The notes: a model not told the origin generated them from the letters alone. DNA of 64,000 nucleotides from an uncultured Methanomassiliicoccales archaeon (GCA_963695345.1 OY968769.1:608001-672000), one strand, 5' to 3'; counted from the first letter of the stretch, positions 18,155 through 55,019 are shown. Numbers and translations: made by a program.

Positions 18155-20111
18155 ATGTTCGAGATAACGAAAAGGGACGGACTGGCCAGGATCGGCAAGC
18201 TCGAGACTGCGCACGGCGTCCTGGAGACCCCGGCGTTGTTGCCGGTCATCAATCCCCGGCTGATCACCGTCTCTCCGCGGGAGCTATACGATGTCTTTGG
18301 TTTCCAGGGGGTCATCACCAATTCATACATCATAAGGAACGATCCGGTGCTTCGGGAGAAGGCGCTCCAGGGGAAGCTCCATGACCTCCTTGACTTTCCC
18401 GGGACCATCATGACCGACAGCGGGACGTTCCAGTCCCACATGTACGGCGAGGTCGACCTGAAGAACAGCGACATCGTCAATTTCCAGAAGGACATAGGGT
18501 CGGACATCGGGACGGTCCTGGACATCTTCACCGAACCAGAGTGGACCAAGGAGCAGACCGGGGCGGCGGTGGACGTGACCTTGGAGAGGACCAGGGAAGC
18601 CGCCGGCCTGAAGGGCGGCATGATGCTGGCGGGAGTGGTACAGGGCTCTGTCTATCCCGACCTGAGGGAGCACTGCGCCCGGGAGATGGCCTCCATCGCG
18701 GTCGACGTTCACCCGGTGGGCGGGGTGGTCCCGCTCATGGAACAATACCGGTTCGCCGACCTGGTGGACGTGATCGTGGCGTCGAAGAAAGGGCTCAATC
18801 CATCCCGGCCGGTGCACCTGTTCGGCGCCGGACACCCGATGGTCTTCTCGCTGGCCGTCCTGCTCGGATGCGACATGTTCGATTCGGCCTCCTACGCCAA
18901 GTTCGCCCGCGACGACCGCCTGATGACCGTGGAGGGAACCATGCATCTGGCGGATATGAAGGTGCAACGACTGCGACTGCCCGGCGTGCGTCGGCAAGAC
19001 CATCGAACAGATCAAGGCCATGAAGCCGGCGGAGAGGCTGCTGACCCTGGCCCGGCACAATCTCTACACGTCGCTCACCGAGATCGAGAGATGCAGGCGC
19101 GCCATACTGGAAGGGGACATATGGGAACTGGCGGAGAGGCGCTGCCGCTCCCACCCGGCCTTGCTGGACGGGCTCCGCCGGCTGCACGAGCACACCGAAT
19201 ACCTGGAGAAGTTCGAGCCGCTTTCCCGGGACCGGGCCATGTTCTACACCGGACCGGAATCGCTGAACCGCCCCGCCATGCTGCGGTATGAGAAGCGCGT
19301 CTTCTCCCGCTACCGGCAGCCGGAGAACGAGATCCTGGTCGGCTTCGCGGACAGCAGCAAGCCCTATGCCAGACAGTATTCTAGCGAGATCGCCACGATA
19401 TCCAAGACCTCCGACGCCCACTTCATGGTGGTCACGCCGTTCGGTCCGGTCCCGATCGAGCTGGACGAGATGTACCCCATCGCCCAGTCCCTGTTCCCGA
19501 GCACCAACGACCGGGAGACCCAGGAACGGATCAGAGGAGCTGATGGAACGGCAGTCGCACCGGCAGACGTACAAGCTCTCGCTCATGTACGACGGCGAAC
19601 CCACCCTGGAGATGCTGTCCGAGATAGCCAAGGGAAGGTCCAGCTTCGATCTGGACCTCTACCGGATCCGGGCCGTCGCTGACTACCAGTTCGGGGAGGG
19701 GGCGGCCGACGCGCTGTTCTCGGGCAAGATCGACCTGGTCAAGTCAAAGAACACCGACAAGATCCGCAATGTCATCGTGGACGGGGAGCACATCCTGTCG
19801 ATGAGGGCGGAGGATGGTTTCTTCACCATGAGACCGGGGGCAGCCAGGAGGCTCATGAAGGCGTTCCCATCGCCCAGGCTCCGGGTCGATGGTGAGGGAC
19901 GACGCCATCCCCTTCGTCAAGGAGGGCAAGAACACGTTCTGCGGTTTCGTGGTGGACGCCGACCCGGAGCTGCGCCCCATGGACGAGGTCATGGTGGTCG
20001 ACAAGAACGACAATCTGCTGGCCATCGGAAGGGCGATGCTCGTCCCGGACGAGATGATGGCGATGACCAAGGGCATCGCGGTGAAGGTGCGCGAAGGGAG
20101 TAAAGGATTAG
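18155..20111 (+). CDS. tgtA: tRNA-guanine(15) transglycosylase with C-terminal PUA domain (several +1 frameshifts)
   Basis: IMTDSGTFQ, GGVVPLME, HLFGAGHP, DMFDSASY, CDCPAC zinc site, ADYQFG, PUA domain; breaks near 18962, 19535, 19888. Confidence 0.93.
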
Positions 20112-20349: not shown

Positions 20350-20486
20350 GCAGGGTGATTGTCTATTCGAGGTAATAAGCGGTTCGGAGCTTGCGGACCG
20401 GCCGAACGATTCGATGATTCCGGCCTAGTGTAACGCTTATCTACGTTGGCGTGGACTATTATTCAACAAGAGCTCGAGGTGCACAT

Positions 20487-21004
20487 ATGGATGTTGTGAA
20501 GGCGATCGAGGAAAGGCACAGCGTCAGAGGTTTCACGGCCGACGACGTACCGATGGAGATAATTGACGAAACTCTCCGGTTGGCGAACCTGGCCCCTTCC
20601 GCCGGCAACCTGCAGGCAAGGGACTTCATCATCGTCAGGGACCTCGAGATGAAGAAGAAGCTTTCCAAGGCCTCATTCGGGCAGCGTTTCGTCGAGGAGG
20701 CCCCGGTCGTCATTGTGGTCTGCAGCAACATGAACCGCATCAAGAACTATGGGGAGAGGGGAGAGAAGCTCTACACCATCCAGGACACCGCGGCTGCCGT
20801 GGTGAACATGATGCTGTACCTGGTGACCAAGGGATACGGGACCTGCTGGGTCGGGGCCTTCGATGAGAAGGAGGTGGGGCGTCTGATGCACCTGCCAGAG
20901 TGCGCCCGGGCGGTCGCCATGATGCCGATCGGCAGGCCCAAGGAATCTGGACGGACCTCGCCCCGGCTGGAGCAGGACACCATCGTGCACAGGAGAAGTG
21001 GTGA
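20487..21004 (+). CDS. Nitroreductase family protein
   Basis: RHSVRGF, APSAGNLQ, GYGTCWVGAF; likely true end ..EKW* in a shifted frame. Confidence 0.9.
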
Positions 21005-21041
21005 AGGAGAGTCTTTCATACCGGAAGGCCCATCAGGTCCC

Positions 21042-21483
21042 ATGGTCCAGATGATCGAGGGTTTCGAGCACGTGGCGCTGGAGGTCCAGAACGCGGAGAC
21101 ATCGCATAGGTTCTACGCCGACGTTTTCGGAGCCGTGGAGACGAACCGCTGGGAGTCGATGGCGCCCGGTATCAGCCGCATCATCTTCGTCGACCTGGGC
21201 GGGACGATCATCGAACTGATCGAGCGGGGCGGGGCGAAGGAACAGTTCCGGGACCACGGCGATGCCGGGATCAAGCACCTCTGCCTGCGGGTCAAGAACC
21301 TGGAGGCGGTGATGGCGATGGTGGAACGGCTCGGGGTCAAGGTCGTCAGCGGCCCGATGTCGATCGACCGATCGAACTACGAACCTACTCCTATCCGATG
21401 GCACCATGGACCTGGACAAGGGCATGAAGCGGGCGGTCGTCTCCGACCCGGACGGCATCCACATAGAATTGTTGGAGAAATGA
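21042..21483 (+). CDS. VOC/glyoxalase family protein (frameshift near 21390)
   Basis: EHVALEV, IELIE, KHLCLRV, DPDGIHIELLE. Confidence 0.85.
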
Positions 21484-21487
21484 GTAG

Positions 21488-21560
21488 TAGCCCCGTCCAG
21501 ATTCGAACTGGAGTCGCTGGCTCCAAAGGCCGGCATGATTGACCGCTACACTACGGGGCT
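21488..21560 (-). tRNA. tRNA-Gln(TTG)
   Basis: Acceptor AGCCCCG/CGGGGCT with A1-U72; loop CTTTGGA; T-arm TCCAG-TTCGAAT-CTGGA. Confidence 0.95.
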
Positions 21561-21744: not shown

Positions 21745-24365
21745 TTAGCTCGACTCGTCGTCAGCCAGGTCTTCTGCATGACACTTTGCCGCGACGCAGA
21801 TCGGGACGACCTCGATCTTCTTGTATATCTCCTCCGGACGGACCACCGCTCCGCCCTTCATCAGCAGGTCGCTCTCGACCGATATCCCGAACAGGCTCTC
21901 GTTCTCCCTGAGGTAGGGCATGAGCAGTTCCCAGTCCTTGTCGGAGAGCTTCGATATGCGCCCGCCGTTGAGCTGGTCCTCGGTCACCTTGTTCCTCGGG
22001 TCGCGCACGTAGATGGCACCGCCGGATGCCAGGGAGAACAGGTTGCCTCCCGGGTAGGGCTCGGCCAGGTCGAACGCGTTGCCGTCGGCGTCGAATCCCA
22101 GTCCGTTCAGGACCACGAATCCTCCGCCGTTCAGCGGGTCGCCCGCCATGATCGACTCGGCCAGATAGTCCAGGCAGGTCCCGTTGATGACCACCCGCGG
22201 CTTTGCCCACGGCGTTGATCAGCGGCCTTCCGGCGGCGTTGCCGCGGATGTAGACGCTGCCTCCCTTGGCCCCGTACATGAAGGTCTGCCCAACGTCGCC
22301 ATGGATGACGAACTTGCCCGATGCCAGGATCTGCCCCAGCTGGTCCTGTCCGTTGCCGTGGATGATGACCTCGGCCCCGTCCAGACCGGACGCCAGGTAG
22401 TCTCCGGAGCTTCCGTAGACGTCCAGCTTGATGCCGGCCGTGCGCGGGCCCAGCCCGCAGCCGAAGAACCTCTGTCCGGTCGTCCCGAAGGTGATGATGT
22501 TCTTCCAGCCCAGTTCGGCGGCCCGGCAGATGACGTGCGATACTCCCTCCTCCCCTTCCATGGGGAATCCGGTGCAGTCGATGGCCATCGCCCTCTGGCC
22601 GTTCGGGGCGACCAGCGATTGATAGTTCTTCAGGTCCACCAGCGCGGCTGGCGACGATCTGTTCGACTCCACCCGGGGGGCCGATCGCAGCATCGACGCG
22701 ATGCCGTCCGTCAGGAGCGTCGTTATCCGGGCCCTGCGCAGCTTGCCGGTCGGGTACCGGCGGTCGAGCGCGATGGTCAGCAGGTCGATCCTCTTCTGGA
22801 ACTCGTCCCCGTTCTCGGACAGCGCCGACAGCGAGGATATCGTGTCGATGATCTCCTCGGCGGACGATGAAAGGACCGCGTGCTTCCACAGCTGGAACCC
22901 TTGTTCCACGGTACCGGAGAGCATCTTGTCGGCCAGTGCCGACCTCCTGCCCATGGGCAGCGGGTGGGCCATTATGGCATCCGCGGCCATGTCGAACTCC
23001 TTCCCCGGGACCGTGACGCGCGCCCCGAACTTGTTGTTGCAGGTCAGCTGGCGCCCTTTGCCCGGGATGTCCTTCCCGAGGTTGAAGATGAACGACCCGC
23101 CGTCGGTGTGGCTCCCGCCCCGTGGCGTTCCAATACATGTCCGCCTGCAGCGGCAGTGTCTTGTAGTAGCTTGCCAGACTGAGCAGCGCGGAATCGATGG
23201 CCTGCTTCTCCGAGGCGATCAGGCCGATCTGCATCTCCCCCTCGACCAGCGCGAAGACCTGGGGCCTCAGCATCGAGGTGTCGGTGATCCCGATCAGCTG
23301 CAGCTTGTCATTGTAGTGGTCGTTGCGGCTGATGATGAAGAACCAGGGGCCGTCCGGCGAGCGGTGCAGGTGGGTCGACTGGATCGCCCGGTAGATCTTC
23401 TGCTTCTCCGGCGACAGCTGGTGGAAGTCCCTCTCGGTTGTCGGTGCGAGCGCCTCCAGGATGTATTCCAGCGGGTACCCGTAGACCCGGTTGAGCAGGT
23501 CGAACAGCAGCACCGATACCTCGGTGTCGGTCAGGAACAGCGGCTTGATGCCTTTCTGTCCCAGGTATTCGGTCACCGAGACGTAGTTGGCGAAGTCGCC
23601 ATTGTGCACCAGCGCCTCGTCCAGGCCCATGAACGGATGCGCTCCGCCGGGATGCCACACGCGACCCTTGGTGGGATATCTCTGATGTCCGATCCAGATG
23701 TTGGCCTTGAAGTCCTCCATCTTGTAGTAACGGATGACGTCCTCGGCGTAGCCGACGATCTTCATGATCAGCATGTTCCGGCCCTGGGACATGACGAACG
23801 CCTGCATCGCATTGTTCGCGTAGAACTTCTGGTTGATCTCGAAGCTGGTCTGGTTGACGTATTCGTCCTCCACCTGGCCGCGGGCTATCTCCTGGAGCTC
23901 GTTCTCAACGATGAACTTGTCCAGCCTGGCCGGCTTGGCCCGGCAGAAGTAGCGGACGACGGTCGGCGGCCTGACCTCCAGCCTGGCGAGCAGGACCGGC
24001 TCATTGCTGATGGGCACCACGTGCGATGACCTGACGTCGTACCGCTCCTGGATGAACTCCTTCTCCAGCTGTTCCCGCACCTCATCCTTCAGATACGCCA
24101 CCTGGACCAGGTAGTGGCTCTCCAGCGTCTGCCTGTCCACCCCCAGCTGCTCCGGGACCAGGCCCACGGCGGATATGCCGCCGCCCTTGCCGTTGCCCCG
24201 GTTGTGCATCTGTTCCAGCGGCTGCAGTATGTGACAGCCTTCCACCGGCTTCGAGGCGGCCAGTCCGACCACTCCGCATCCGCCCTCGGCCTCCTGGGGC
24301 AGGTACTTGAACGGGTCCTTGGTGATCTTCCTTCTCGATTGCAGTATCTTGTTGGCGGAATCCAT
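21745..24365 (-). CDS. Glutamate synthase amidotransferase (GltB1) fused to GXGXG domain (GltB3), frameshifted
   Basis: EGGCGVVG (Ntn Cys), HNRGNG, HQRYPT, AHPF, HNGD; C-terminal GSSGDYL, HGNGQD, GDVGQTFMYGAKGG; breaks near 23120 and 22200. Confidence 0.9.
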
Positions 24366-25867
24366 CACAGCATCCTCCCGGGTGTTCCGTTGTAGCGGAG
24401 CAGGTCCGTCCTGCCCCTCAGCTCGGTTATGTCCTTCATGTCCAGGCGGTGCAGCAGCTCCTTCCATTGCATCTGCCAGGACTGGTACAGGTTGCCCAGC
24501 CTCTTGGCCTGGGATTGGGATCTCGTTCAGCACTTCCAGCTCCAGGTCGGTGGTGGCTATTCCGCGGGGGCAGCCCCTGCCGCTCTCGCAGTTCGCGCAC
24601 CGGACGCATCCCATGGCCACCATTTCCGCCGTGCCGATGACGACACCGTCTGCGCCCAGGCAGATGGCCTTGGCGATGTCCATGGCGGTCCTCATGCCGC
24701 CGCTGCAGATCAGGGTCACGTCCTCCCTGATGCCCTCCTTCTCCAGGAAGCGGTGCACCTTCGGTATGGCGTACTCGATCGGCTGGGCGATGTTCTTCTT
24801 GGCGATCTCCGGAGCCGCGCCGGTACCTCCGTATCCGCCGTCCAGGTGGACGATGTTGGCGCCGGCGTAGTAGGAGCCGACCGCCACCATCTCGACGTCG
24901 TTGGGCGTCGACACCTTGACCGACAGCAGCGCCTTCGGGTTCACCGCGTGGATCCAGTCCAGGTGCTTCTTGTGGTCCTCGACCGAGTACACGCTGTGGA
25001 ACGGGAACGGGAGAGAACAGACTGGTGTAGGGCACCGCCTCTCTCATCTTGGCCACCTCGGGGGTGTTCTTCTCGTACAGCAGATGTCCGCCGAGACCGG
25101 GCTTCGCGCCCTGGGCGTACTTGAACTCCACGATCGGGGCGCGCTTGATGGTCTCCTCGCGGACACCGAACAGCCCGGTAGCGATCTGGGTGATGACGTG
25201 GTCCTTGTACGGGATGAGCATGTCCGGATAACCGCCCTCGCCAGTGCAGGTGAAGGTGTTCCATTTCGTGGCCGCTATGGCCTTTGCTAACATCGTCCGC
25301 TTGCTGACGGAGCCGAACGACATGCCGCCGCCGTAGACCGGGATGTCGATCTTGACCCGCGGTCCATACTTGCGGTGGTTCAGGTCGATCGCGGTGGATA
25401 TCTCCTCCGGATGGAAATTGCCCTTGGCGGCCGGGATCTGCGATCGAGATCCGGTCGAAGCCGCCGCCCGAGTTGGCATGCTGGGCGTAGTGGTCCAGCG
25501 GGATCGGCTGACCGGTCTCCGCCTGCTTCCAGGTGGCGATGATCATGTCCGGGGTCCAGCGGGGGTCGCCCATGCTGGCGAACACCGGGTTCGGCGAGAC
25601 CGACAACGATTGGGTGGGGCAGTTCTTGACGCAGTAGAACGCGTTCGAGGAGCAGGTCGGGCCGATGCACTTGGCATCCGCCGGCGGCAGCATCTTGACG
25701 TGTCCCTCCACGCGGCGGTGCACGCCGTAGGGGCAGAGCGACTCGCAAAGCCCGCAGTTGATGCAGTTGTCCGCCCGGGTGACCCGGTACCGGGCCATTC
25801 TCTTCAGCAGCATCGACGGAACGGCGTTGAAGTCCTCATCCATGATCTCGGTTGACATTGCGCACAT
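24365..25867 (-). CDS. FMN-binding glutamate synthase subunit (GltB2) with N-terminal ferredoxin domain, frameshifted
   Basis: CINCGLCESLC; GGMSFGS, TGEGG, KYAQGAKPGLGGHL, DGGYGGTGAAP, SGGMR, CVRCANCESGRGCPRGIAT. Confidence 0.9.
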
Positions 25868-25868
25868 C

Positions 25869-27239
25869 TCACGCACCTCCCTGTAAGTTGGAGAACGCAT
25901 CCCTTTCGGCGTCCTCGTAGAATATGGCACGGCCGGTCTCACCGCGCAGGCGGCGGGCCTCCCTAATGCCCATGGCCCCCATCACTTCCAGCAGCTGGTC
26001 CCTCCAGGCGCCCATCATGTTGACCACCCTCCAGTAGGCGTAATCGGTGGTGATCTTGCTTCCGATCCATCGGACAGACCGGGCAGGACGGGCCTCCGTG
26101 GCATCCCAACGCCACCTTCAGCGCCTGTTCCAGTACGATAGCGTCGGCACCGCAGATCAGGCTCTTCGGCACATGTTCCGCCGCGGCCAGACCGCCGGCG
26201 GCTATGATGCTGACGGATTCCCTCACTGACGCGTTGGCCAGCGCCTTGTTTATCGCCAGCAGCGAGTCCTTGGCCAGACGCTTGGTCCCTTTCTCCTGGC
26301 CCTGCTCGTCGTAGAGCAGGTGGATGATGTCGATGCCGCCGGAGACCAGCTCCAAGGCGACGCTTCTCGACCCCTTCGGCCGTCTCCACCCTCGCGCCGA
26401 ACGATGGCGTCGGGGAACCGGGCGGTGAGGGCCTGCGAGGTCCTCTTTCCAGGCCGGGGACATCTCGAACTCGACGATGCTGGGCGAGGTCACCGTCTCT
26501 ACCGAGGTCCTTGCCTGGCGAGAAGACCGGCACCAGCAGGCGCATTGCCTCGGTCGTCACCTCCGGCAGTTTCGTCCCGGCCGGGGAAGAACAGGTACGT
26601 TCCCAGCGTGGCCGCCGCCTTGATCAGGCCTTCCAGGGGTGCCGCCCTGAGGTCGGCCGAGCGGCACACGTCCATCATCATCGGCACGGGCAGCTCGACG
26701 AACTTCGGCATCTCGGTGAGCAGATTTCCTTTCTCATCGAACTCCAGGTGATCGACCCTCTTTCCCAGGTCGACGCTGGTGGATATGTATTCCCTTCCGT
26801 GGATGCCGTCCCTGGTGGGACGGACGATCTCGGACATGTCCGTCCACATGGAATCGTAGCCGGGACCGACGTACATGCCCCGGTAACCGGCCCCGTACAC
26901 CGGCAGCTTGCCGGTCTGGGATTCGTTCCAGATGGTGTTGACCCGGGTGCGGTGTCCAGATTCCACCGCCTAGCGCCAGGTATTCGTTCGAGTACTTGCA
27001 CGGTCAGCGCCCTCTGGGGGCAGTTCTCGACGCAGCGCAGGCAGTTCTTGCACAGGTAGGCCTTCGGTTCGGCCATGACCCTGGGGTCCTTGGCGTCGCG
27101 TTCGTGCACACCGTAGATGCATTGGTCGGCGCACCGGCCGCAGTTCATGCAACGGTCGTCCCGGATGACGGCGTTCTTGGCGAACGGCTCTCTCCGGCAA
27201 CGGAAGCTCCTTCTTGGGGAGGTGGTAGCGCTCGTACAT
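25869..27239 (-). CDS. Glutamate synthase-related protein: 2x[4Fe-4S] domain plus degenerate GltB2-like barrel, frameshifted
   Basis: CMNCGRCADQC, CKNCLRCVENC; GYDSMWTDMSEIVRP, SIIAAGG, KSLICGADA, WRDQLLEVMGAMG. Confidence 0.8.
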
Positions 27240-27240
27240 C

Positions 27241-29234
27241 TCAGTTACCTCCTTCGACGTTCTTGCTGGGAGACCCAAGCACCAGCCCGCGGTCGACCAG
27301 CGCGTCGTATGCCGCGGAGTTCTCCGCCTGCTCCACGAACCGCTTGACCATCTCGTCGTTCCTTGCCGTGCTGTTCCTCCAGCCGCCTTTCCATCTCCTC
27401 GTAGACCGGGATCAGGTGGAGCTTCGACTGGCACACCTGCTCGCAGGCCTTGCATCTCATGCACAGGAAGGTCGCATGGGCGTGCTCCTTGGTCACCGCC
27501 CCGTAGGTGTCCATCTTCCTGGCGGTGAGAAGCTTGCCCCTGGCAGTGACACGCTCGTCCTTGGTCAGCATGTACGCCGGGCAGACTCCGACGCACGCTC
27601 CGCACATGGCGCACTCGTCGGCGGTGTCCAGCAGCAGGTCCTTTCCCTGCCGTTCCATGATCTCTCCCGAGGCAATGACCTTGACCGCCGGTGCCGCCAC
27701 CGGGGACAGGGCGTTGACCATCTTGAGGACCGACCCCAGTACGCCTGGACTGAACAAAGTGGCCGGCAAACCGCCCAGCCTGCCGCTGAGCCTGGGGAAC
27801 TTGCCCCGGTTCATGATGTTGGCCGGGTCCATCTGCTTCTTGGCGTCGAGCAGGGCGGTCTTCTCGTGGACGTCGCCATAGTCGACGAACAGGTGGTTCC
27901 ATACTCCGAATGAGTAGGGAGTCGCCCCTTCCTCGTACAGTGCCTTGCTGATGAGGAGACCACGGAACGAGTCCATGGTGTACTTCAGCTGCTTGGTCTG
28001 GTCGGTTATGTAGTAACAGAGGAGCATGCCGTCCCCGTTGCCGAGGAAATGAATCTCCATCATCGGCTCGAGGCCATGCTGGTCGCATATCTCGAGTGCC
28101 TTGGCCACGATCTTGGACATCCTTTCCTTGGGTGCCAGCACCTCGGAGCCCATCAGCCCCGGTCCGAGCTTGCGGAACTTCATGGGGAAGAACCGCTCGT
28201 TCCACATCAGGAATGATAGGTAGGGCTGGGCCAGCTTTGCCATCCTTCGGGACGGCGTTGGCGGCAGCGTCCTTGTCGTTCTCGTAGGTGGCCATGATGC
28301 CGTGCGCCTCCGGGTAGTCACCCCTGCCTAGTACCTGGTTCAGGCCCTTGAACTTGGCCGGGCTGAAATAGGTCAGGTCCATGGGTTTCTTGTCGGAGGT
28401 GGCGAGCTTGCCGGCGTACTCGATGGCCTTCTCGTGGTCGGAGAAGAAGACGAGCCTTGGCGCTACCGTCCTCAGCCTTTCGCGGACCTGGAGCGTGACC
28501 GACGCGATGACGACCAGCTGGCCTTCGCTGCCGAAGACAGGATGGAAGAGAGGGTCCTTGGGAGTCAGCTTCTTGACCTCGCCGAGGGAGGTGACCACCT
28601 CGACCTCTTCCACGGAGTCTATGAGCCTCCCGGCGGACACGGTGCCTACGCCGATACCGCCGCAGGCGATCCAACCGCCCACCGTCGAAAACCTGCTGGA
28701 TGGTGAGGATTTGACGCTCATTCCCTTCTTCTCCAGGAACCAGTCCAGGTCGGCCCACCGGATACCCGCCTCGACCTTGACGGTCCTCCGGACCGGGTCG
28801 AAGGAGATCACGTTGTTCATGGTGTTCATGTCCAGGACGATGCCGCCCTTGACCGGCATGGAACCTCCGAACGGCGAGGAGCCGGCCCCTCGGACGATCA
28901 CCGGGATCTTCTTGGAGGCGGCGTAGGTCAACAGCGCCTGGATGGCCGAGACGGAGAATGGCTGGGCGAGAACGTCCGGGACGCTGTCGAACATGGTCGA
29001 GCGGAGCATGTCCGGCACATCCGCCTGGTCCCTCGAATAGAGGGCGAGCGCCCCTTTCGCCGATATGATCTTCAGGTCCGGTATGTTCAGGGCCATGATG
29101 CCCTTGGTGACCTTTCCCTTCTGCACCTCTCCCTCCTCAGGGAACAGGTCCTGGGCGGTCTGCTTTACTGCCCACGGGTCGGTCTTTCTATCATTTTCTG
29201 AGCCATCGAGTGCGGTTGTTGAAGCGGCATTCAT
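27241..29234 (-). CDS. FAD-binding (PCMH/GlcD-fold) oxidoreductase with C-terminal 2x[4Fe-4S] domain, frameshift near 28230
   Basis: RGAGSSPFGG, VEAG, TVGG, GSEGQL, DPANIMNRGK; CAMCGACVGVC, CMRCKACEQVC. Confidence 0.88.
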
Positions 29235-29931
29235 GCTGGATATCCCCCTCTAGATTTGTTGTCTTCGGAAATCTGTCGATCGCGATCAATACGATGAACA
29301 TTATCGCCCTGGCGGTTAACATTGCCAGGCATTCGGTCGAAGGCGTCTATGGCCAGCACTGAGTACGCTCGGACCCCCTTACGCTCCGCATCCGCCATTT
29401 CATCACCTTGCAATGCGCCGATCATCCCAGGACCACCATTCCTCGTCCATCGCTCGCCCCTCCCGAGCTTGGACGCTTGTGTAATAGTACCGCGGGTTGC
29501 GATAACAGGCCTCAGATAGCGAATCAGGTCTTATAGCTTATGCATATGTCTAATTCAAGCCCCGAAATACCTTCAATAACTGATTAATGAATGTTATTTC
29601 AACGTTTTTTTAGACGAATGTCGGGCAGATTCATCGAATGGATAGTCTCATTGCCTAAGGAATTCCTCTGTTATTGGACAGATATGTTCAGAAATGCGAG
29701 GATGTATTAGATGTTTATCTAAAAATTGGCCAAATTCATGCTCAACAATTGGAAAGGATTCTGTGCAACTTATAATTAACGACCCTGTAATTATGAAATC
29801 GCTGCTGATCCCGAGCATATTGAGCACTCGGGATGATAGGACCTCTACGGTAACCTTCATCAATGAACATGCGGAGCCAGGGAAGTGCCGGGAATGGGAT
29901 TGAGCCGGGCGATGCCCCGACAGCAACAACA

Positions 29932-31539
29932 TCAGCCGTACTTGTGATTGATCGCGGCCTTTATCAGCCCGAGGTGCAGAGGCGAGGGCTTGTTCGGTCT
30001 CGACCTGAACTCCGGATGGAACTGGCACGCCACAAAGTATGGGTGATCTCCCTGATATTCGCCAATTTCCATCTTCACCCCGTCGGCCGATCTTCCGGTG
30101 AACTTCCACCCGGCGGATTCGAGCTGTTCTATGAACTTCGGGTTCACCTCGTACCTGTGCCGGTGCCTCTCCATGATCAGCTCCTTTCCATAGAGATCAT
30201 AGGCTATGCCCTTAGTGACCATGACCGGCTGGGCCCCTAGCCTCATGGAGGCTCCCTTCTTGACGACGTTCTTCTGCTCCGGGAGCAGGTCCACCACCGG
30301 GTAGGCGTTGTCCTTGTCGAACTCGGTGGAGTTGGCGCCTGACATCCCCAGTATGTCCCGGGCGATCTCCATGGTAGCGATCTGGAACCCGAGACAGACC
30401 CCAAGATACGGCACCTTGTTCTCCCGGGCGTATCTGGCAGCCATTATCTTGCCCTCTATGCCCCGGTTTCCGAACCCTCCTGGGATCAGGATCGCGTCGG
30501 CCTTCTGCAATTCTTCGGTGACGCCGAACTGCTGCACCACCTCAGAATCGACGAAGATGAGCTCGACCTTGGTCCCGGCCTCGGCCCCAGCATGGTGAAA
30601 GGCCTCGAAATGCGATATGTATGAATCGGCCAGATGGGTATACTTCCCGACACAGGCGACCTTGACAGTCTTGTTCGGGTTGAGGATGCGGTGAGCGAAC
30701 TCCTTCCATTCAGTAAGGTCGAAGCCCTTGGGTTCAAGCTTCAATCGGTGAAGAAGGAAATCGGTGAGGCCCTGCTCCTCGAGGATCATCGGGACCTCGT
30801 AGATGGAGCTCGCATCCGGACAGGAGACCACCGCCTCCACCGGGACGTCGCAGAAGAGCGATATCTTCCTCTTGATCGACTCCTCCAAAGGCTCCTTGGC
30901 CCGGCAGACTATCACGTCAGGCTGAATACCGATGGCACGGAGCTCCTTGACCGAGTGCTGGGTCGGCTTGGTCTTCTGCTCCCCCACCACGCCCATGATC
31001 GGGACCAGGGTGGTATGTACATAGATGCAGTGCTCGCCTTTTCCCAGATCCGCGTTCATTTCCCGGACGGCTTCCAGGAAAGGCATGGACTCGATGTCAC
31101 CTACCGTCCCGCCCAGCTCGACGATGCAGACGTCCGCGCCGGTCGCCTCTGAAACGATGGTGATCTGGTTCTTGATCTCGTTGGTGATGTGGGGAATGAT
31201 CTGGACCGTCTTGCCCAGGTATTCGCCGCACCTTTCCTTTTCGATCACCATCCGGTAGATCTTTCCGGTGGTGATGTTGTGATTGTTGGTCAGGCTGATG
31301 TCTAGGAACCTTTCGTAGTTGCCTAGGTCCAGGTCGACCTCTCCGCCGTCATCCAGCACGAACACTTCACCATGCTCGAACGGGTTCATCGTCCCTGCGT
31401 CGACATTGAGGTAGGGATCGATCTTGATGGCGGTGACCTTGAGCCCGCGGGATTTGAACAGCCTACCGATCGATGAGGCGGTTATCCCTTTGCCGAGCCC
31501 GGAAATTACTCCCCCAGTAACAAAAATGTACTTCATCAA
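29932..31539 (-). CDS. pyrG: CTP synthase
   Basis: [40 protein letters not shown]. Confidence 0.98.
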
Positions 31540-39897: not shown

Positions 39898-40233
39898 CCA
39901 CAAACACATCGGTTCTTTGTCGAAATGAGGCTTTCCGGCCTCCCCTGATATCTATTTCACATCTGGCTACAAATGGATATCGTTCTCCGCCTTTCTCGCT
40001 ACTTTCAATCCCAATCTCGAAATCCTCTCATTCTGTTGCGAACACCAGTTCAAAACGATGCTGGATTATTGAGTATTTCAATAAGATCCTGACCATACAT
40101 GGCAGCATGAAAAGTCCTCTGACAGAATGCGTCCAGCGTAGGGGAGATCAATTTCTTTATGTCCATCTTGATGGCCAGGCCAACAAGTAGATACCACGAT
40201 ATGCCCTATGATACAATGGGCAGGTATCGGATC

Positions 40234-43200
40234 ATGATCGCTATCCTATACGTTGATGATGATGTTGATCAGCTGGACCTAGGCAAAATATTCCTGGAGG
40301 AGATGGAGGATTTCCAGGTTAAAACGGCGGCATCTGCCAACGAAGGGCTGATGCTTCTAAGAGACACGGACTATGATGCGATTATTTCAGATTACCAGAT
40401 GCCGGTGATGGACGGAATAGGTTTCCTGAAGACAGTAAGGGGCATACACCGCAACATGCCCTTCATACTGTTTACTGGCAAAGGCCGCGAGGAGGTAGTC
40501 ATCGATGCGATCAACAACGGAGCGGATTTCTACCTTCAGAAAGGCGGTGACCCCGGGGCCACTTTCATCGAGCTCGCTCATAAGGTGAGGCAGGCAGTGA
40601 ACCGAAACCGCGCTGAGCGAGAGTTGAGGAAGAAGACCGCAGAACTGGACAATTTCTTCTTGCTGTCGTTAGACATGCTCTGCATCGCGGACATGGACGG
40701 CCACATTGTTCGAGCCAATAAAGCCTGGGAGGATACTCTTGGCTATAGTTTGCAGGAACTTGAGGGGGCAAGGTTCCTCGATTTCGTACACCCTGATGAT
40801 GTTGTTACAACTCAATTGGCCATGGCGGAGCTAGAAAACGGCAATAAAGCACTCGATTTCCTCAATCGATACCGGACCAAGCATGGAGACTATCGCTGGA
40901 TAGAATGGAGGTCGATACCCTACGAAGGGAGATTGATCTACGCGGCGGCCCGAGACATCACGGACAGGAAGTTGGCAGAGGACCAATTGAGGGAAGCATA
41001 TGAATTGATAGCTGCGAATGAAGAGGAACTGCATCAACAGTTCGATGAACTGATTCAGAACCAGGAAAATCTAAAGGCGGTGAACCTGCAGTTGAACAGT
41101 CAAGAAGAGGCCTTGCGCACCCAGCTTGCGCAGATCACCAGTATCCACAGTGAATTGTTGAGCAGCGAGAAGAACTTTCAACTTCTGGTAGAGAACGCAC
41201 CGGATGCCATCTTCATAGCGAGCCACGATTTCCGATTTGTTTTCATAAACCGAGCGGGGGTCAGGATGTTTGGGGCATCGGTTGCCGAAGAGCTATTGGG
41301 CACCTCGACCTTCGATAGGATACACCCGAGTTTCCATTCGATAGTAAGGGAGCGCGTGAGGCAGCTCACCGTCGAATGTGAACCGGTCAAGCCTCTTGAG
41401 GAGGTGTACATCAGGATGGACGGCTCTCCGGTGGCGGTTGAGGTCGGCGTAGTTCCATTTGACTATAGAGGGAAGAACGGAACCCTGGTGATCGTGCGGG
41501 ATATCACTGAACGGAAGCGGGCAGAAGAGGCGTTACAGCGCTCTGAGCAGATGCTGAAGATCGTCCTAGATAACTTCCCTGGAGTGGTATTTTGGAAGGA
41601 TCGCGATTTGGTCTATCTGGGAGCCAATCTGGAATCGGCTAGAATCGCAGGGTTCACTGATTCTAGGGAAATTGTTGGCAAGACTGATTTTGACATGCCC
41701 TGGGCGAAAACAGAAGCAGAGGCCTACCGGGCAGATGATCGTCAGGTGATTGAGAGCGGTCAACCGAAGCTTCACGTCATTGAAAGACAGCTCAGAGTCG
41801 GCGGCGAGATAGGTTGGCTGGATACAAGCAAGGTTCCCTTGCGGGATTCTGGGGGGAATGTGGTTGGAATGTTGGGTACATCTACCGATATAACGGTTCT
41901 GAAACGGGCCGAGGAGAAACTTCTCCAAGCGAATCTGGTGGTGGAGAACGGTCCTGCCGTGCTTTTCTGCTGGAAGATGGAGGAGGACTGGCCAGTCGAG
42001 TTGGTCTCCAAGAATATCAGGCAGTTCGGATATTCTCAGGAGGAGTTCCTATCTGGTGCGGTAAAATTTGCCCAGATCGTCCATCCCGAAGATCTCGGAA
42101 GAGTCAGGGAGGAGGTAGACCGCCATATAGCACTAGGTACGGACCATTTCAAGCAGACCTACCGAATATTGAGCAAAGAGGGTGATGTCCACTGGGTGGA
42201 CGACCGAACGGCCACAGTCAAGGACACCGGGGGTCGCATCGCGCATCTCCAGGGAATAATAATCGATATCACCGATCGAATGAGCGTCGAGAGAGCCCTC
42301 CTTCGCAAGAATGAGGAGCTGAACATAGCTTACGATACCTTGAGCAAGATCGAGGAGAAACTACGAGGCAACTTTGCTCGACTGAGCACTAAGGAATATG
42401 AGCTGGAGGCGAGCGAGAAGCGCTACAGAAGGCTGCTCGAACAGACGTATGATGCCATAATAACCCATCATGACGGCAAGATCGTACAGGCGAATGAGGC
42501 AGCTTGCAGACTTGTCGGGGCAAGGTCGATCGACGACCTGATCGGACGCTCGGTCATCGATTTCGGAGGACCAGGATTAAAGGAGGTGATCGTTCAGAGG
42601 ATGGAGCACCTATATGCCAATCCAGGCATCATCGAGCCCCTCATCGGGGAGAAACTCCGACGGTTGGACGGCTCGATCATAGATGTGGAAGCGATCGCCA
42701 CCAGTTACCTAGAGCAAGGAAAGACATGCGTCCAGGTGATATTCAGGGACGTTTCTGAACGGAACCGTATCCTGAATGATTCACAGGAGAGCGAGGAGAA
42801 GTATCACCAGCTCTTCGAGTTAGGCGGTGAGGCGATATTCCTCATCGATAACGAAGATGGCAGGCTCATGGAGTGCAACACCGCTGCCACGGAGATGTAC
42901 GGATACAGCCATGATGAGCTGGTCCACATGCAAAATACGGACCTATCGGCGGAGCCAGGGGAGACCAAGAGGATGACGATTGAGAGTTCTGATGGAGAGG
43001 TAGTTGTTCCCGTAAGGTATCACCGCCGCAAGGACGGGAGAACGTTCCCAGTGGAGATAAACGGCCGTTTCTTCTCCTGGAAAGGCAGGAGGGTCCATGT
43101 GGCGGCAATCCGCGACATTACTGAGCGCATGAGGATCGACGACGCCCTCCGTCAGATAAACAGAAAGCTAAACCTGCTCAACAGCATAACCAGGCACGAC

Positions 43201-43791
43201 ATCATCAACAAAATCGTGGTACTGCAGGGGAACATCGACATCGCCAAGAAGAGGTCCAGCGACCCGTCGATGAAAGAGTATCTGGACCGGCTGGACAATG
43301 CCACCAAGGCCATCCAGGAGCATGTAGAGTTCAGCCGGATATATCAGGACCTCGGCCAGCAGGGGCCGGTCTGGCAGCCAATTGGCGAATTGATCGGGAC
43401 GATGGACATTCCTCCTGGCCTGACCCTCGAGCAAGAGGTAGGAGAGATCGAGGTGTATGCTGATCCCATGCTCAGGAAGGTCTTCTACAACCTTCTCGAC
43501 AATACCATCCGACACGGAATCAGGAGCACAAAGGTTGTGGTCTCCCTAGACGAGAACAAGGATGGCCTGATCATAGCATGGGAGGATGATGGCATCGGCG
43601 TTCCCACCACCGAGAAGGAGAAGATATTCGAGCACGGATATGGCAAGAACACCGGATTGGGCCTCTTCATCTCCAGAGAGATTCTGGCGATCACAGCCAT
43701 CGGCATTAGGGAGACCGGAATGGAAGGGAAAGGCGCCCGCTTCGAAATCACCGTCCCGAATGGCGGGTACCGTCACGTCAGCAGCAACTGA
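40234..43791 (+). CDS. Hybrid sensor histidine kinase (REC, about six PAS/PAC, HATPase)
   Basis: YVDDD, SDYQMP, FTGKG; repeated RDITERK; RHDIINK; NLLDN, DDGIG, TGLGL. Confidence 0.95.
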   Translation: MIAILYVDDDVDQLDLGKIFLEEMEDFQVKTAASANEGLMLLRDTDYDAIISDYQMPVMDGIGFLKTVRGIHRNMPFILFTGKGREEVVIDAINNGADFYLQKGGDPGATFIELAHKVRQAVNRNRAERELRKKTAELDNFFLLSLDMLCIADMDGHIVRANKAWEDTLGYSLQELEGARFLDFVHPDDVVTTQLAMAELENGNKALDFLNRYRTKHGDYRWIEWRSIPYEGRLIYAAARDITDRKLAEDQLREAYELIAANEEELHQQFDELIQNQENLKAVNLQLNSQEEALRTQLAQITSIHSELLSSEKNFQLLVENAPDAIFIASHDFRFVFINRAGVRMFGASVAEELLGTSTFDRIHPSFHSIVRERVRQLTVECEPVKPLEEVYIRMDGSPVAVEVGVVPFDYRGKNGTLVIVRDITERKRAEEALQRSEQMLKIVLDNFPGVVFWKDRDLVYLGANLESARIAGFTDSREIVGKTDFDMPWAKTEAEAYRADDRQVIESGQPKLHVIERQLRVGGEIGWLDTSKVPLRDSGGNVVGMLGTSTDITVLKRAEEKLLQANLVVENGPAVLFCWKMEEDWPVELVSKNIRQFGYSQEEFLSGAVKFAQIVHPEDLGRVREEVDRHIALGTDHFKQTYRILSKEGDVHWVDDRTATVKDTGGRIAHLQGIIIDITDRMSVERALLRKNEELNIAYDTLSKIEEKLRGNFARLSTKEYELEASEKRYRRLLEQTYDAIITHHDGKIVQANEAACRLVGARSIDDLIGRSVIDFGGPGLKEVIVQRMEHLYANPGIIEPLIGEKLRRLDGSIIDVEAIATSYLEQGKTCVQVIFRDVSERNRILNDSQESEEKYHQLFELGGEAIFLIDNEDGRLMECNTAATEMYGYSHDELVHMQNTDLSAEPGETKRMTIESSDGEVVVPVRYHRRKDGRTFPVEINGRFFSWKGRRVHVAAIRDITERMRIDDALRQINRKLNLLNSITRHDIINKIVVLQGNIDIAKKRSSDPSMKEYLDRLDNATKAIQEHVEFSRIYQDLGQQGPVWQPIGELIGTMDIPPGLTLEQEVGEIEVYADPMLRKVFYNLLDNTIRHGIRSTKVVVSLDENKDGLIIAWEDDGIGVPTTEKEKIFEHGYGKNTGLGLFISREILAITAIGIRETGMEGKGARFEITVPNGGYRHVSSN

Positions 43792-51987: not shown

Positions 51988-53500
51988 TTAGTAGTTCGAT
52001 ATCTCTCTGAACACGGACCCGTCTGGGTTCCTGATGACTGCCTTCATCGGCATCTGTCCCGGCAGGGTGTGCGTCGCGCACGAGTTGCACGGGTCATAGG
52101 CACGGTAGGCCATCTCGACCATGTTCAGCAGACCGTTGGACACTTCCCAGTTCTTGATCAGCGCGGTGGCGGCCTTCCTGACGCTCAGGTTGATCGGCGC
52201 GTTGTTGTTGGTCGTTCCGACGACCAGGTTGACCTGGGTGGTGATGCCGTTCTTGTCGGCGCAGTAGTGGTGCACCAGGGTTCCACGCGGAGCCTCGAGT
52301 ATACCGACTCCTTCGTCCGGGGTGTGCAGCTCGCCCTTGATGTCCTTGCTGGTGATCTGCGGGTCCTGTGCCCTCTCGAGCAGCAGTTCCGATGCGTGCA
52401 CCAGCTCGATGACACGCGCCCAGTGCATTGCCATGGTGTGGTGGATCGGTCCCTTGACGCCGAGCGAGGCGAAGGTGCTCTTCATCTTCTCGTACTCGGC
52501 CTGCGCCAGCGGGGTGGTGAACCCGCTCGAGACGTTGATCCTCGACAGCGGCGTCGCCCGGTAGATACCGGAGTCGATTCCGTCGACGAGTCCCTTCCAG
52601 CCGACCGGCTTGAAGTAGCAGAACTTTTCGTACGACCAGGGCAGGGTGTGCTCGGCGATGTAGTCCAGGTATCCCTTTCCGGTGTAACGTGCCACCTCCT
52701 TGCCGTTCGGGTCGATCATCTTCTGCGTTCCGTCGTAGAAGTTGACCTTGTCGTTCTTGTCGACGGTTCCGAGGTTGTAGGTCTCGTTGTAGAAGATGTC
52801 CTTGCTGACGATGATGTTCAGGTAGTCCTGGTTCTTCAGCACGACGTCCTCGAAGATCTTCATGGTGAACATGGAGAAATCGACGCAGGACTTGGCCATG
52901 GCCTCGATCTTCTTGCGCTCGTCCTCGTTGAGCGGCTTGGACATACCGCCGGGGATACCGCAGACCGGGTGGGTCGCCTTTCCGCCCAGCATCTCCTGGA
53001 TCTTCTGTGCGTAGGACCGGTGCTTGATGACTTCGGCACCGACCGCGACGCCGACCGCGTCGACCACACCGAGGATGTTCCTCTTCTCTGCCGGGGCGCA
53101 TGGCCCGAGGACGAAGTCCGCCGCCGCCAGCGCATAGAAGTGCGCGATGTGGCTGTGCACGTAGTGTGCGGCGTAGAACAGCTCCCTGAGCTTGACCGCC
53201 GCCTCTGGCGGGGTCGGCTCCGTAGACACCGTCCAGTGCCTTGGTGGAGCACAGGTGGTGCGCACCGGGGCATACGCCGCAAAGCCTGGCGGTGATCTTG
53301 TTCAGCTCATCGACCGACCGGCCGATGCAGAACTTCTCGAAACCTCTCAGTTCCGGCACCTGCCAGTAGGCGTTGGCTACGTTACCCTCGTCGTTCAGGA
53401 AGATCTCGATCTTGCCGTGGCCTTCGAGCCTGGTGATCGGGTCTATGGTGATACGCTTCGAGGTCGCCTTGGTGTGCGGGTCAGATAGTATCGGTGACAT
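51988..53500 (-). CDS. mvhA: F420-non-reducing [NiFe] hydrogenase large subunit (frameshift near 53210)
   Basis: TRLEGHG, RGFE, RLCGVC, EAPRG, DPCNSCATH plus cleavable tail. Confidence 0.95.
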
Positions 53501-53502
53501 GT

Positions 53503-54541
53503 TTAGGCCTCCTGCTTTGCCTCTACCGGCTTCTTCTTACCTCTCTCGTGACGGTCCTCTTGATGATGGACTTCGGCATGGTGAACGCGTAGAACGTTCC
53601 CAGCGGGTCCTTGACCTGCTGCATGATCTCGAGGATCTGGTCCTCGTTCAGCAGCGCCTCGTCGTCCCCGATCTTGAAGATCGAGGCCAGAGCGGACAGC
53701 ATGCTACCGCCCTGGTCCATGACCTCGGCGGTCGGTCCCATGCATCCGCGGCATGGCTGGTTGGCCTCGAGGCACTTCGCGCCGCATCCGGCCCTGGTCG
53801 ATGGTCCGAGGCAGATGACTCCCTGCTCCAGCATGCACTTTTCCGGGTCGATGTCGATCTCGAAGGCCAGGTGGATCTTGTCCACGCTCTTGACCGACTT
53901 CGTCCTGCCGCACTCGTCGCACAGGGTCTTCTGGGAAGCGATGACCGATCCCTTCGGCGGGAGCGGCGTGCCTTCCGTCAGATGTGCTGTGACGATGCCC
54001 AGGAACTCGTTGATCAGGTTGGTGGTCGGCGGGCATCCCGGCATGTAGTAGTCGACGTCGATGACCTGGTCCAGCGTCAGGACGGTGTCGTACAGCATCG
54101 GCAGCTCGAGGTCTCCCTCGGGCATGTGGGTCTCATGTCTGCGGTATCGACCGGGTTGGCCGAGTCCTTCTGGTCCGAGGAGAACGTCCGGTTATAGACG
54201 TAGTCCAGGGTGGCCTTCGCGTTGGTCACGTTGGCCAGTCCCGGTATTCCTCCGAAACAGGCGCAGGAACCGAAGGAGACGATGAGGGCGGACTTCTGCC
54301 TGAGCAGCTTGGCCATGTGCTCGTTCTCGCTGTTCCTGATCGCACCGTTGTACAACGTGGCGGTGATGGACTCGTCGGGCATCGCCTCCACGTCCTTGAT
54401 CTTGGTGTCCACGGCGATCGGCCAGAACACGATGTCCGCGATCTCTGCCACTCCGAGGATCTTCTCGTCGATGTCCAGGAGGGCGACGTCGCATCCTCCG
54501 CAACCGGCTCCCCAATATTGCGCAATCTTGATCTTTGCCAT
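53503..54541 (-). CDS. mvhG: F420-non-reducing hydrogenase small subunit (frameshifted; stop at 53503 or 53523)
   Basis: GCGGC, GSCACFGGIPG, PGCPP, CDEC, CLGP.T..GC...C, PCRGC. Confidence 0.93.
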
Positions 54542-54560
54542 TTCGTTCCACCTGCCTGGA

Positions 54561-55019
54561 TTAGACCTCATCGTTGATCGGGTTCGGGCCAAGCTCCTTG
54601 ATCAGCTCGTTGAACTCCTTGATCGTCTTCTGGAACTTCGCACCCTCTGAGGCGGAGACCCACTCCAGCTTCAGCCGGTCCGGGTTGAATCCGTATTGTT
54701 CGAGCAGCACCCTGAGCAGCGCTATCCTCCTGCGGGTCCTGTAGTTGCCACCGATGTAGTGACAGTCGGCCGGGTGGCATCCCAGTACCAGGACGCCGTC
54801 GGCGCCCTTGGCGAAGGCCCGGAGGACGAACTCCGGGTCTACCCTGGCCGAGCACATGGTCCGGATGACCCTGAAGTTGGTCGGCATCTGCAGTCTCGAC
54901 ACTCCCGCCAGGTCGGCCCCGGCGTAGGAGCACCAGTTGCAGCAGAAGACGACGATCTTCGGCTCGAACTCGCCTTCCTCTGCCGGCTTCGCTGCTGTTT
55001 GGGTAACGGTCTCGGACAT
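54561..55019 (-). CDS. mvhD: Hydrogenase iron-sulfur subunit MvhD
   Basis: FCCNWCSYAGADLAG, MCSARVD, GCHPADCHY, WVSASEG. Confidence 0.97.
   Translation of the reverse strand: MSETVTQTAAKPAEEGEFEPKIVVFCCNWCSYAGADLAGVSRLQMPTNFRVIRTMCSARVDPEFVLRAFAKGADGVLVLGCHPADCHYIGGNYRTRRRIALLRVLLEQYGFNPDRLKLEWVSASEGAKFQKTIKEFNELIKELGPNPINDEV

Follow-up and report, generated by a model that had tools for sequence, protein, structure and literature searches.

What does a flavoprotein of the lactate dehydrogenase fold do in one operon with the domains of glutamate synthase, and could it exchange electrons with them? The question is raised by four genes on the minus strand, at positions 21745 to 29234, of a 64,000-nucleotide stretch of DNA from an uncultured Methanomassiliicoccales archaeon (GCA_963695345.1, OY968769.1:608001-672000), the whole of which is referred to here as the window. 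Glutamate synthase (GltS) is one of the two gates through which nitrogen enters biomass, and its known electron sources are NAD(P)H through GltD, ferredoxin and, putatively, F420. The cluster is a real, conserved and unstudied GltS variant with a flavoprotein add-on; a literature search found no paper on this four-gene set. Its products probably make up a four-subunit iron-sulfur (Fe-S) flavoprotein of the glutamate synthase kind, in which the gene 1 product would act as a dedicated redox module. The assignment to glutamate synthase follows from the conservation of both catalytic sites, from the nitrogen genes that neighbour the cluster in bacteria, and from the finding that in many carriers the cluster provides the sole gltB1-type match. 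The parts of the locus are as follows (flavin adenine dinucleotide, FAD; flavin mononucleotide, FMN; amino acids, aa).

27241..29234, minus strand: gene 1, FAD/Fe-S protein of ~663 aa, with a PCMH FAD domain, a VAO-type cap and a C-terminal helical 2x[4Fe-4S] domain.
25869..27260, minus strand: gene 2 ('B2deg'), 460 aa, with a ferredoxin domain and a catalytically dead copy of the GltS FMN barrel.
24365..25918, minus strand: gene 3 ('B2'), ~500 aa, with a ferredoxin domain and an intact GltS FMN/synthase domain.
21745..24365, minus strand: gene 4 ('B1B3'), 872 aa, with a class-II amidotransferase, a helical linker and a GXGXG beta-helix.
29235..29934, minus strand: spacer of 700 bases between pyrG and gene 1, upstream of gene 1.

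The open reading frames (ORFs) found at this place in the window are fragments, not full genes. Their Pfam matches comprise FAD_binding_4 (119.9 bits), Fer4_8 (39.6 bits) with a weak FAD-oxidase_C (22.4 bits), two distinct ferredoxin stretches, Glu_synthase in three pieces (29.3, 121.2 and 141.3 bits), GATase_6 (26.1 bits) and GXGXG (37.2 bits). An intact counterpart is present in a genome of the same genus (G007, one contig, 99% complete; labels beginning with G, L, f and X are our own, for genomes, loci, families and sequencing runs). Its locus L011 holds four intact ORFs of 680, 460, 516 and 872 aa, which abut or overlap one another and occupy the syntenic place between pyrG and the gene for archaeosine tRNA-guanine transglycosylase (TGT). 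Genes 1 and 2 overlap by ~20 nt, the start of gene 4 overlaps the stop of gene 3, and a purine-rich stretch precedes the ATG of gene 1 at 29234. The four-gene architecture described in the original prediction, which was made from the window sequence, is thus borne out by the Pfam matches of the window ORFs and by the intact genes of the relative.

The fragmentation is an artefact of assembly. Along the operon, the coding frame as traced by third-position G+C changes some dozen times, and a DNA alignment with G007 (83.9% identity) reveals 16 single extra bases, and no missing base, in the coding part of the window. Two of these lie in gene 1 (near 28242 and 27360), nine in gene 2, three in gene 3 and two in gene 4 (near 23122 and 22201).

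16 single extra bases relative to the G007 orthologue, by DNA alignment: ~28242, 27360, 27189, 26997, 26953, 26573, 26510, 26437, 26401, 26363, 26064, 25439, 25012, 24513, 23122, 22201.

Once the 16 bases are skipped, as had been proposed beforehand as a check, all four genes read through without internal stops and each ends at the orthologous stop codon. The aa identities to G007 are then 0.87, 0.85, 0.94 and 0.91 for genes 1 to 4, and the differing codons are synonymous in 741 cases and non-synonymous in 262. At 12 listed places, which correspond to 12 of the 16 breaks, the extra base is missing from contigs of the public short-read runs X1 and X3 (92-99% alike); two further places of omission in public contigs are known, with positions not shown here, and runs X2, X3 and X6 are of low depth and cover only parts of the operon stretch. 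The genome of the window (G000) is 85% complete, six of its seven same-genus relatives being 93-99% complete and the seventh 55%. Frame changes occur in the G000 counterparts of 10 of 27 other G007 ORFs, among them glutamate dehydrogenase (GDH), the archaeosine TGT and two hydrogenase-like ORFs, and a 15-kb stretch around the ordinary gltB genes of G000 is almost clean of them. The public contigs, the stop-free reading after skipping and the similar breaks elsewhere in G000 together establish that the extra bases are assembly errors and that the genes are intact in the organism. Sixteen frame breaks within 7.5 kb of deposited sequence could also mean a true pseudogene cluster in the window strain. 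This is very improbable, however, as every break is a one-base insertion, no stop is left after skipping, synonymous differences prevail, the public contigs do without the extra base at the 12 listed sites, and frame breaks are about as dense in housekeeping genes in other parts of G000. The practical message for the window is that its apparent pseudogenes are assembly errors.

Other genes of this assembly show the same pattern. The archaeosine TGT gene of the window (18155-20100, plus strand) is broken into two ORFs (378 and 271 aa), where G007 has one ORF of 650 aa, and tblastn detects three frame changes in it, an error of the same kind as in the operon. A 363-aa ORF with nitroreductase and glyoxalase domains (20451-21539, plus strand) has separate ORFs of 175 and 146 aa as its counterparts in G007 and is probably a fusion created by a frame error. 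A second glutamine synthetase (GS) copy (G000 1812875-1813877) and an NfnB-type gene (2471379-2472639) are each split into two frames, which is more evidence of patchy indel errors in the G000 assembly.

The two catalytic sites of a glutamate synthase are found in genes 4 and 3. Gene 4 of G007 scores 26.4 bits on GATase_6, just under the 27-bit cut-off, and has the N-terminal Cys of a class-II (N-terminal nucleophile, Ntn) glutaminase: Cys30, which follows a 29-residue leader (propeptide), and the PurF-type stretches HQRxPTKG, HNGDFANY and TDTE are invariant in 26 of 26 orthologues. The beta-helix is represented by a GXGXG match (PF01493) of 46.9 bits at residues 643-799 (cut-off 32.5). An AlphaFold2 (AF2) model of gene 4, with a mean confidence (pLDDT) of 75.6, finds its best fold matches in GltS alpha chains (7mfm_G, 6s6s_A, 1ea0_A and 1ofd_A), and also matches GlmS and PurF. 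Gene 3 of G007 matches Fer4 families and, strongly, Glu_synthase (PF01645, 304 bits), and thus has the FMN/synthase barrel. It keeps the motifs QGAKPGLGGHL and GGTGAAP, which we take to be the substrate and FMN-phosphate motifs. Next to its FMN domain lies the Fe-S motif expected of GltS, in the form Cx2Cx2Cx5CP, whose four Cys contrast with what we take to be three in the [3Fe-4S] site of bacterial GltS. The ferredoxin domain of gene 3 has one standard motif and one CxxxxC-x6-C-x3-CP motif.

Gene 2 resembles gene 3 in its layout, with Fer4 matches and a weak Glu_synthase match (32.2 bits) in G007. Its N-terminal 2x[4Fe-4S] ferredoxin domain is complete, with the ferredoxin motifs kept; its FMN barrel is degenerate and has lost the QGAKPGxGG and GGTGA stretches. 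A C-terminal Cys motif is retained, with only three Cys in the G007 copy and four in the majority of the five aligned copies, and the family has an invariant stretch of its own, WTDMSEIVRPTRDGIHGRE. Counted by motif, the Fe-S sites encoded by the cluster number at most eight: three each in genes 2 and 3, and two in gene 1.

Gene 1 consists of a PCMH FAD-binding domain and a VAO-type cap, as in GlcD, LctD and LDHD, according to both Pfam and fold matches. The G007 protein matches FAD_binding_4 (125.1 bits), FAD-oxidase_C (22.4 bits, barely passing the 21.2-bit cut-off) and 4Fe-4S dicluster families, and its AF2 model (pLDDT 81.7) is closest in fold to LctD (7qh2_C), mouse LDHD and AGPS (alkyl-DHAP synthase). 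Its C-terminal helical domain carries two CxxCxxCxxxC(P) motifs. Pfam and NCBIfam scans of gene 1 detected no CCG, membrane or pyridine-nucleotide domain, leaving the two [4Fe-4S] motifs as its sole output domain, and neither the Fer4_20 dicluster nor the Pyr_redox_2 domain that would mark a GltD/NfnB small subunit. With no other output domain, a dedicated redox subunit is the simplest reading of gene 1. Database names for the proteins of the set are generic ('FAD-binding protein', 'FAD/FMN-containing dehydrogenase/ferredoxin', 'glutamate synthase-related protein').

The active site of LctD is described as binding a metal through His377, His384 and Glu422, with His423 as the base and Arg328 at the substrate carboxylate (PMC9232219). 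The gene 1 family has an invariant Arg at the position of Arg328 and a conserved Tyr at that of LctD Tyr386, and its cap has strongly conserved stretches of its own (ERFFPMKxRxLGPG, YYxTDQ and PYSxGxWN). These features suggest that gene 1 has an active site that is real but likely different from that of LctD.

The linkage of gene 1 to the gltB-like genes is strict in Thermoplasmata. When one genome from each species was scanned with a gene 1 alignment, 61 loci were obtained, 59 of them with an orthologue-grade match. The four genes stand in order on one strand in 46 of the 59; the other 13 stop at a contig end with at most 73 bases left, and there is no exception. The two remaining loci have weak gene 1 matches (24-31%) and no gltB-like genes. 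All ten loci from the window's family, which represent six genera, share the gene order. In an even sample of 201 genomes of the class, 33 contain a gene 1 orthologue and the same 33 one of gene 2; they come from five families, and the two genes lie at adjoining coordinates, with gene 1 identity down to 33%. Carriers make up 3/4 of family f1 plus G000, 21/22 of f10, 4/6 of f28, 3/3 of f30 and 1/6 of f31, with none in 25 other families (f7, 0/20); they are labelled Methanomassiliicoccales, Methanomassiliicoccaceae or Thermoplasmata. The expectation that the FAD gene is conserved next to gltB-like genes is thus confirmed at all 59 loci and by its presence in the same 33 genomes as gene 2. The number of protein clusters matching the FAD subunit at E <= 1e-20 is 333. 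In family f10 (non-methanogenic Thermoplasmata), an MFS transporter and a divergent MttB-family methyltransferase gene lie upstream of the cluster and an NfnAB-like pair downstream (L034, L037, L038, L042, L061, L066, L068, L071, L075, L076, L078 and others).

Genes 2 to 4 also form a three-gene core in bacteria. One four-gene locus (G234) comes from a metagenome-assembled genome labelled Chloroflexia. In its phylum, Chloroflexota, a gene 2 homologue is present in 14 of 301 sampled genomes, and all 13 of these that were inspected have B2deg, B2 and B1B3 in order, one of them truncated where its contig begins. In a gene 3 tree rooted with ordinary GltB2, the Thermoplasmata form one clade (100/99) among Chloroflexota sequences; the outgroup stands on a very long branch and support for the deeper forks is weak (80/61, 82/95), and we infer from the tree no direction or donor of transfer. 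Protein Atlas matches point to look-alike clusters in Chloroflexota, Thermodesulfobacteriota and Planctomycetota, as leads only. The Desulfovibrio genes DVU1823-DVU1821 are putative homologues of the three-gene core. The DVU1823-DVU1821 operon is listed in a nitrogen regulon (PMC4641369).

Several bacterial loci differ in their surroundings or domain content. In four of the same phylum (L089 5181-7242; L090 10757-12815; L091 3173-5598; L092 2-4711 and 10928-11845), a MetF-type methylenetetrahydrofolate reductase gene lies directly upstream of the core, together with a MetV and/or an MvhD-type gene. An NrpR-type regulator is encoded near the core in L091, and a CCG protein and a 1275-aa HdrA/GltD-like protein downstream in L092. 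The MetF/MetV/MvhD-type proteins and the CCG and HdrA/GltD-like proteins of L092 may be alternative electron-input partners. GltD domains have been described in HdrA (PMC12054007). In the high-G+C loci L093-L097 and L099, gene 3 matches start at about residue 109-115 and, in three of them, gene 2 matches at about residue 47, so that these versions may be without part or all of the N-terminal ferredoxin domains.

Neighbouring genes link the cluster to nitrogen metabolism in bacteria: amtB and the P-II gene glnK lie directly upstream of it in G502 (locus L088), which has glnA ~3.9 kb downstream, and in G234 glnA ends ~140 bases before the FAD gene. In f10, f28, f30, f31 and G015 the gene 4 fusion is the only GltB1 match, at ~30% identity, and G012 (99% complete) is without an ordinary GltB2. 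G000 and G007 also hold the ordinary archaeal set of gltB1, Fd-gltB2 and gltB3 (G007 L082 5726-9338; G000 899487 onward), and G000 has GDH and, at 676877-677968, a GS gene in addition to its frame-broken second copy. In family f9, ordinary gltB1 occurs in 5/5 genomes and GS in only 1/5.

According to the original prediction, the FAD protein stands instead of GltD. This holds for the cluster, where no protein of the GltD type (Fer4_20/Pyr_redox_2), one of the known electron-input partners, is encoded. It does not hold for the genome, which has, beside the ordinary split gltB set, an NfnB/'GltA'-type relative of GltD (600 bits on TIGR01316, cut-off 471.75) with a PyrK-like partner; the nearest TIGR01317-like gene of G000 (2471379-2472639) scores under the family cut-off. 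Nor does it hold for the related loci as a group: 18 of them have an NfnAB-like pair downstream, on the strand of the cluster, which it follows directly in 13 and after ~2.2 kb (within ~2.5 kb) in five. There are 22 loci with at least 1.8 kb of downstream room and no NfnAB pair, including all those closest to the window. The NfnAB pair of G007 is located away from the cluster, after a polyferredoxin with an HdrA-C-terminus-like part and before two ORFs that are presumably hydrogenase subunits.

On the proposed mechanism, gene 4 would hydrolyse glutamine at its N-terminal Cys, its GXGXG domain serving as a structural beta-helix, and gene 3, with FMN, would reduce 2-iminoglutarate, formed from 2-oxoglutarate and the released ammonia, to glutamate. 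Gene 2, an FMN-subunit copy that has lost catalysis, would have been retained as a scaffold and an electron wire. Besides FAD and FMN, the complex would contain as many as eight Fe-S clusters, and electrons would pass along the chain of clusters, of which the FAD of gene 1 would be the end. Gene 1, with its D-lactate dehydrogenase fold and rebuilt active site, would exchange electrons with some substrate. The idea that the FAD protein is a dedicated electron-input subunit is supported as regards its dedication, given the strict linkage, the gene overlap and the lack of any other output domain; the inward direction of flow and the complex itself are what we infer from this arrangement.

Several observations weigh against a four-subunit glutamate synthase with gene 1 as its redox module. 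The evidence that the four proteins would associate physically is the linkage of their genes. In the gene 1 family profile, the positions of LctD His377, His384, Glu422 and His423 are occupied by Q/G, L, S and L/F, the Ser at the Glu422 position being nearly invariant in 33 sequences; with the metal and base residues lost, the electron donor is not readable from homology. D-2-hydroxyglutarate and D-lactate were considered as donors, as a 2-oxoglutarate product would feed the synthase, and were dropped for the absence of these residues. The motif GGAA-N6-TTCC, which we take from work on methanogen NrpR to be the operator motif of that regulator type, matches twice in the window (1.43 expected) and not at all upstream of gene 1. 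The role of the operon in the window's genome may be accessory, given the ordinary split gltB set there. In the Chloroflexota, the FAD gene is present in the fetched stretch in only two of the 13 inspected genomes (G234 and G502) and absent there in 11, so other partners can also serve the core. It follows that the FAD protein, one partner among several that vary with the lineage, has been added to a more widespread core and does not replace GltD universally. The same 11 genomes fit the idea that it is a free-standing dehydrogenase, merely co-transcribed with a self-sufficient, ferredoxin-fed three-subunit glutamate synthase, as does the presence in both GltB2-like subunits of their own 2x[4Fe-4S] domains, like that of the ordinary archaeal GltB2 of the same genome. 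We consider this unlikely, because in Thermoplasmata the FAD gene is never found apart from the core (33/33 carriers, 59/59 loci), overlaps gene 2 by 20 nt, and, its Fe-S motifs aside, encodes none of the domains (CCG, membrane or pyridine-nucleotide) that would let its product pass on electrons by itself.

A further difficulty concerns GS. In a search of the class sample with PF00120 at E <= 1e-10 (with the unpublished genome G135, a non-carrier that has GS, among those counted), nine of the 33 carriers have a match and 24 have none, compared with 13 of 168 non-carriers without one. In most carriers the enzyme thus cannot be the partner of GS in a GS/GOGAT cycle. Some of the GS-less carriers are nearly complete (G077, 98% on one contig; G043, 97%), all five tested encode GDH, in three of them 8-14 kb from the cluster, and the glutaminase residues are still invariant in the GS-less lineages. 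The job of the cluster there might accordingly be other than ammonia assimilation with GS: it could convert imported glutamine to glutamate, or run in reverse (2 Glu -> Gln + 2-oxoglutarate + 2 e-) with the FAD subunit as the exit. Taken as a whole this is a rather improbable account, since GS is present in the window's own genome and in all five bacterial genomes tested, two of which have the cluster beside glnA, amtB and glnK, since, by our own rough estimate, an acceptor above about -70 mV is required for the reverse reaction, and since the carriers are related to one another, so that few independent evolutionary events may underlie the GS counts. Its more specific form, that in the GS-less Thermoplasmata the complex operates in reverse as an ATP-independent, redox-driven glutamine synthase, with electrons leaving via the Fe-S chain and the rebuilt FAD site to a fairly high-potential acceptor, is highly unlikely; if true, the operon would have replaced GS instead of partnering it. 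We took up as well the alternative, raised with the original prediction, of an N-methylglutamate-synthase-like system for methylated amines, of the MgsABC type, which presumably shares three domain types with the cluster. The MttB-family gene and MFS transporter upstream of 17-21 related loci and the mcrA gene of the window's organism would suit it. However, up to eight Fe-S sites and an FAD imply a net electron transfer that the reaction does not need, the MttB gene is divergent and absent from the window, mcrA is absent from all four tested carriers that belong to other families than the window's, the glutaminase residues do not vary, and the bacterial neighbours are amtB, glnK and glnA. This alternative thus finds no support and is hardly credible. 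A glutamate synthase variant with gene 1 as its dedicated redox module is the account that we continue to regard as probable.

If so, what is new in this form of glutamate synthase is the use of a dead catalytic-subunit copy as an Fe-S wire and of a lactate-dehydrogenase-fold flavoprotein with a rebuilt active site. The four-gene form would couple glutamate synthesis to another redox couple in anaerobes living close to the thermodynamic limit. The system is common, being present in 33 of the 201 sampled Thermoplasmata genomes and the sole gltB-type system in many of them, and the lack of GS in most archaeal carriers raises the question of how glutamine is handled there.

Elsewhere in the window, an Mvh-type hydrogenase set is encoded at 51991-55655 (minus strand), with a NiFeSe_Hases large subunit, an Oxidored_q6 small subunit and a 364-aa protein with an MvhD/FlpD domain in its C-terminal third. 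At 40159-43788 (plus strand) lies the gene for a 1210-aa sensor with an N-terminal receiver domain, many PAS domains and a C-terminal HATPase_c domain.

Among the closest known systems is the ordinary archaeal split GltS, in which the domains likewise form separate proteins and GltB2 carries a ferredoxin domain. It consists, however, of three genes, with no FAD protein, dead copy or B1-B3 fusion, and its GltB2 reaches 424 bits on PF01645, where gene 3 reaches 305, and is separated from the gene 3 clade by a very long branch. The relevant passage of a review goes no further than to state that ORFs for single GltS domains exist in Archaea (PMC8097209). NfnAB/SudAB, composed of a GltD-like NfnB and a PyrK-like NfnA, with a large subunit scoring 600-604 bits on TIGR01316, is a possible supplier of low-potential electrons, but the pair is not in the window's cluster.

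Gene 1 shares the whole fold of FAD domain and cap with LctD of Ldh-EtfAB (7qh2_C), mouse LDHD (8jdv) and GlcD (Foldseek E 5e-21, TM-score on target 0.77-0.80, profile E 2e-31), and differs from them in the missing metal ligands and base and in the fused C-terminal 2x[4Fe-4S] domain. The order of FAD_binding_4 followed by a Fer4_8-type dicluster is also that of E. coli YdiJ and GlcD-GlcF; the NCBIfam matches to YdiJ (39.6 bits) and GlcF (33.2 bits) are weak and far under the family cut-offs, and gene 1 is without the CCG domains and hence without a quinone- or disulfide-type exit. With the bacterial NADPH-dependent GltB/GltD of Azospirillum brasilense (1ea0, 6s6s) and Bacillus subtilis (7mfm), the operon has in common the amidotransferase with its N-terminal Cys, the FMN barrel with its Fe-S motif, and GXGXG. 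The alpha chain of the bacterial enzyme is, however, split and reordered in the operon, where the FMN domain is separate and the amidotransferase is fused to GXGXG; the FMN-type subunits carry N-terminal ferredoxin domains, an extra FMN-type subunit is dead, and the cluster, with no GltD, includes instead a PCMH-fold FAD/2x[4Fe-4S] protein.

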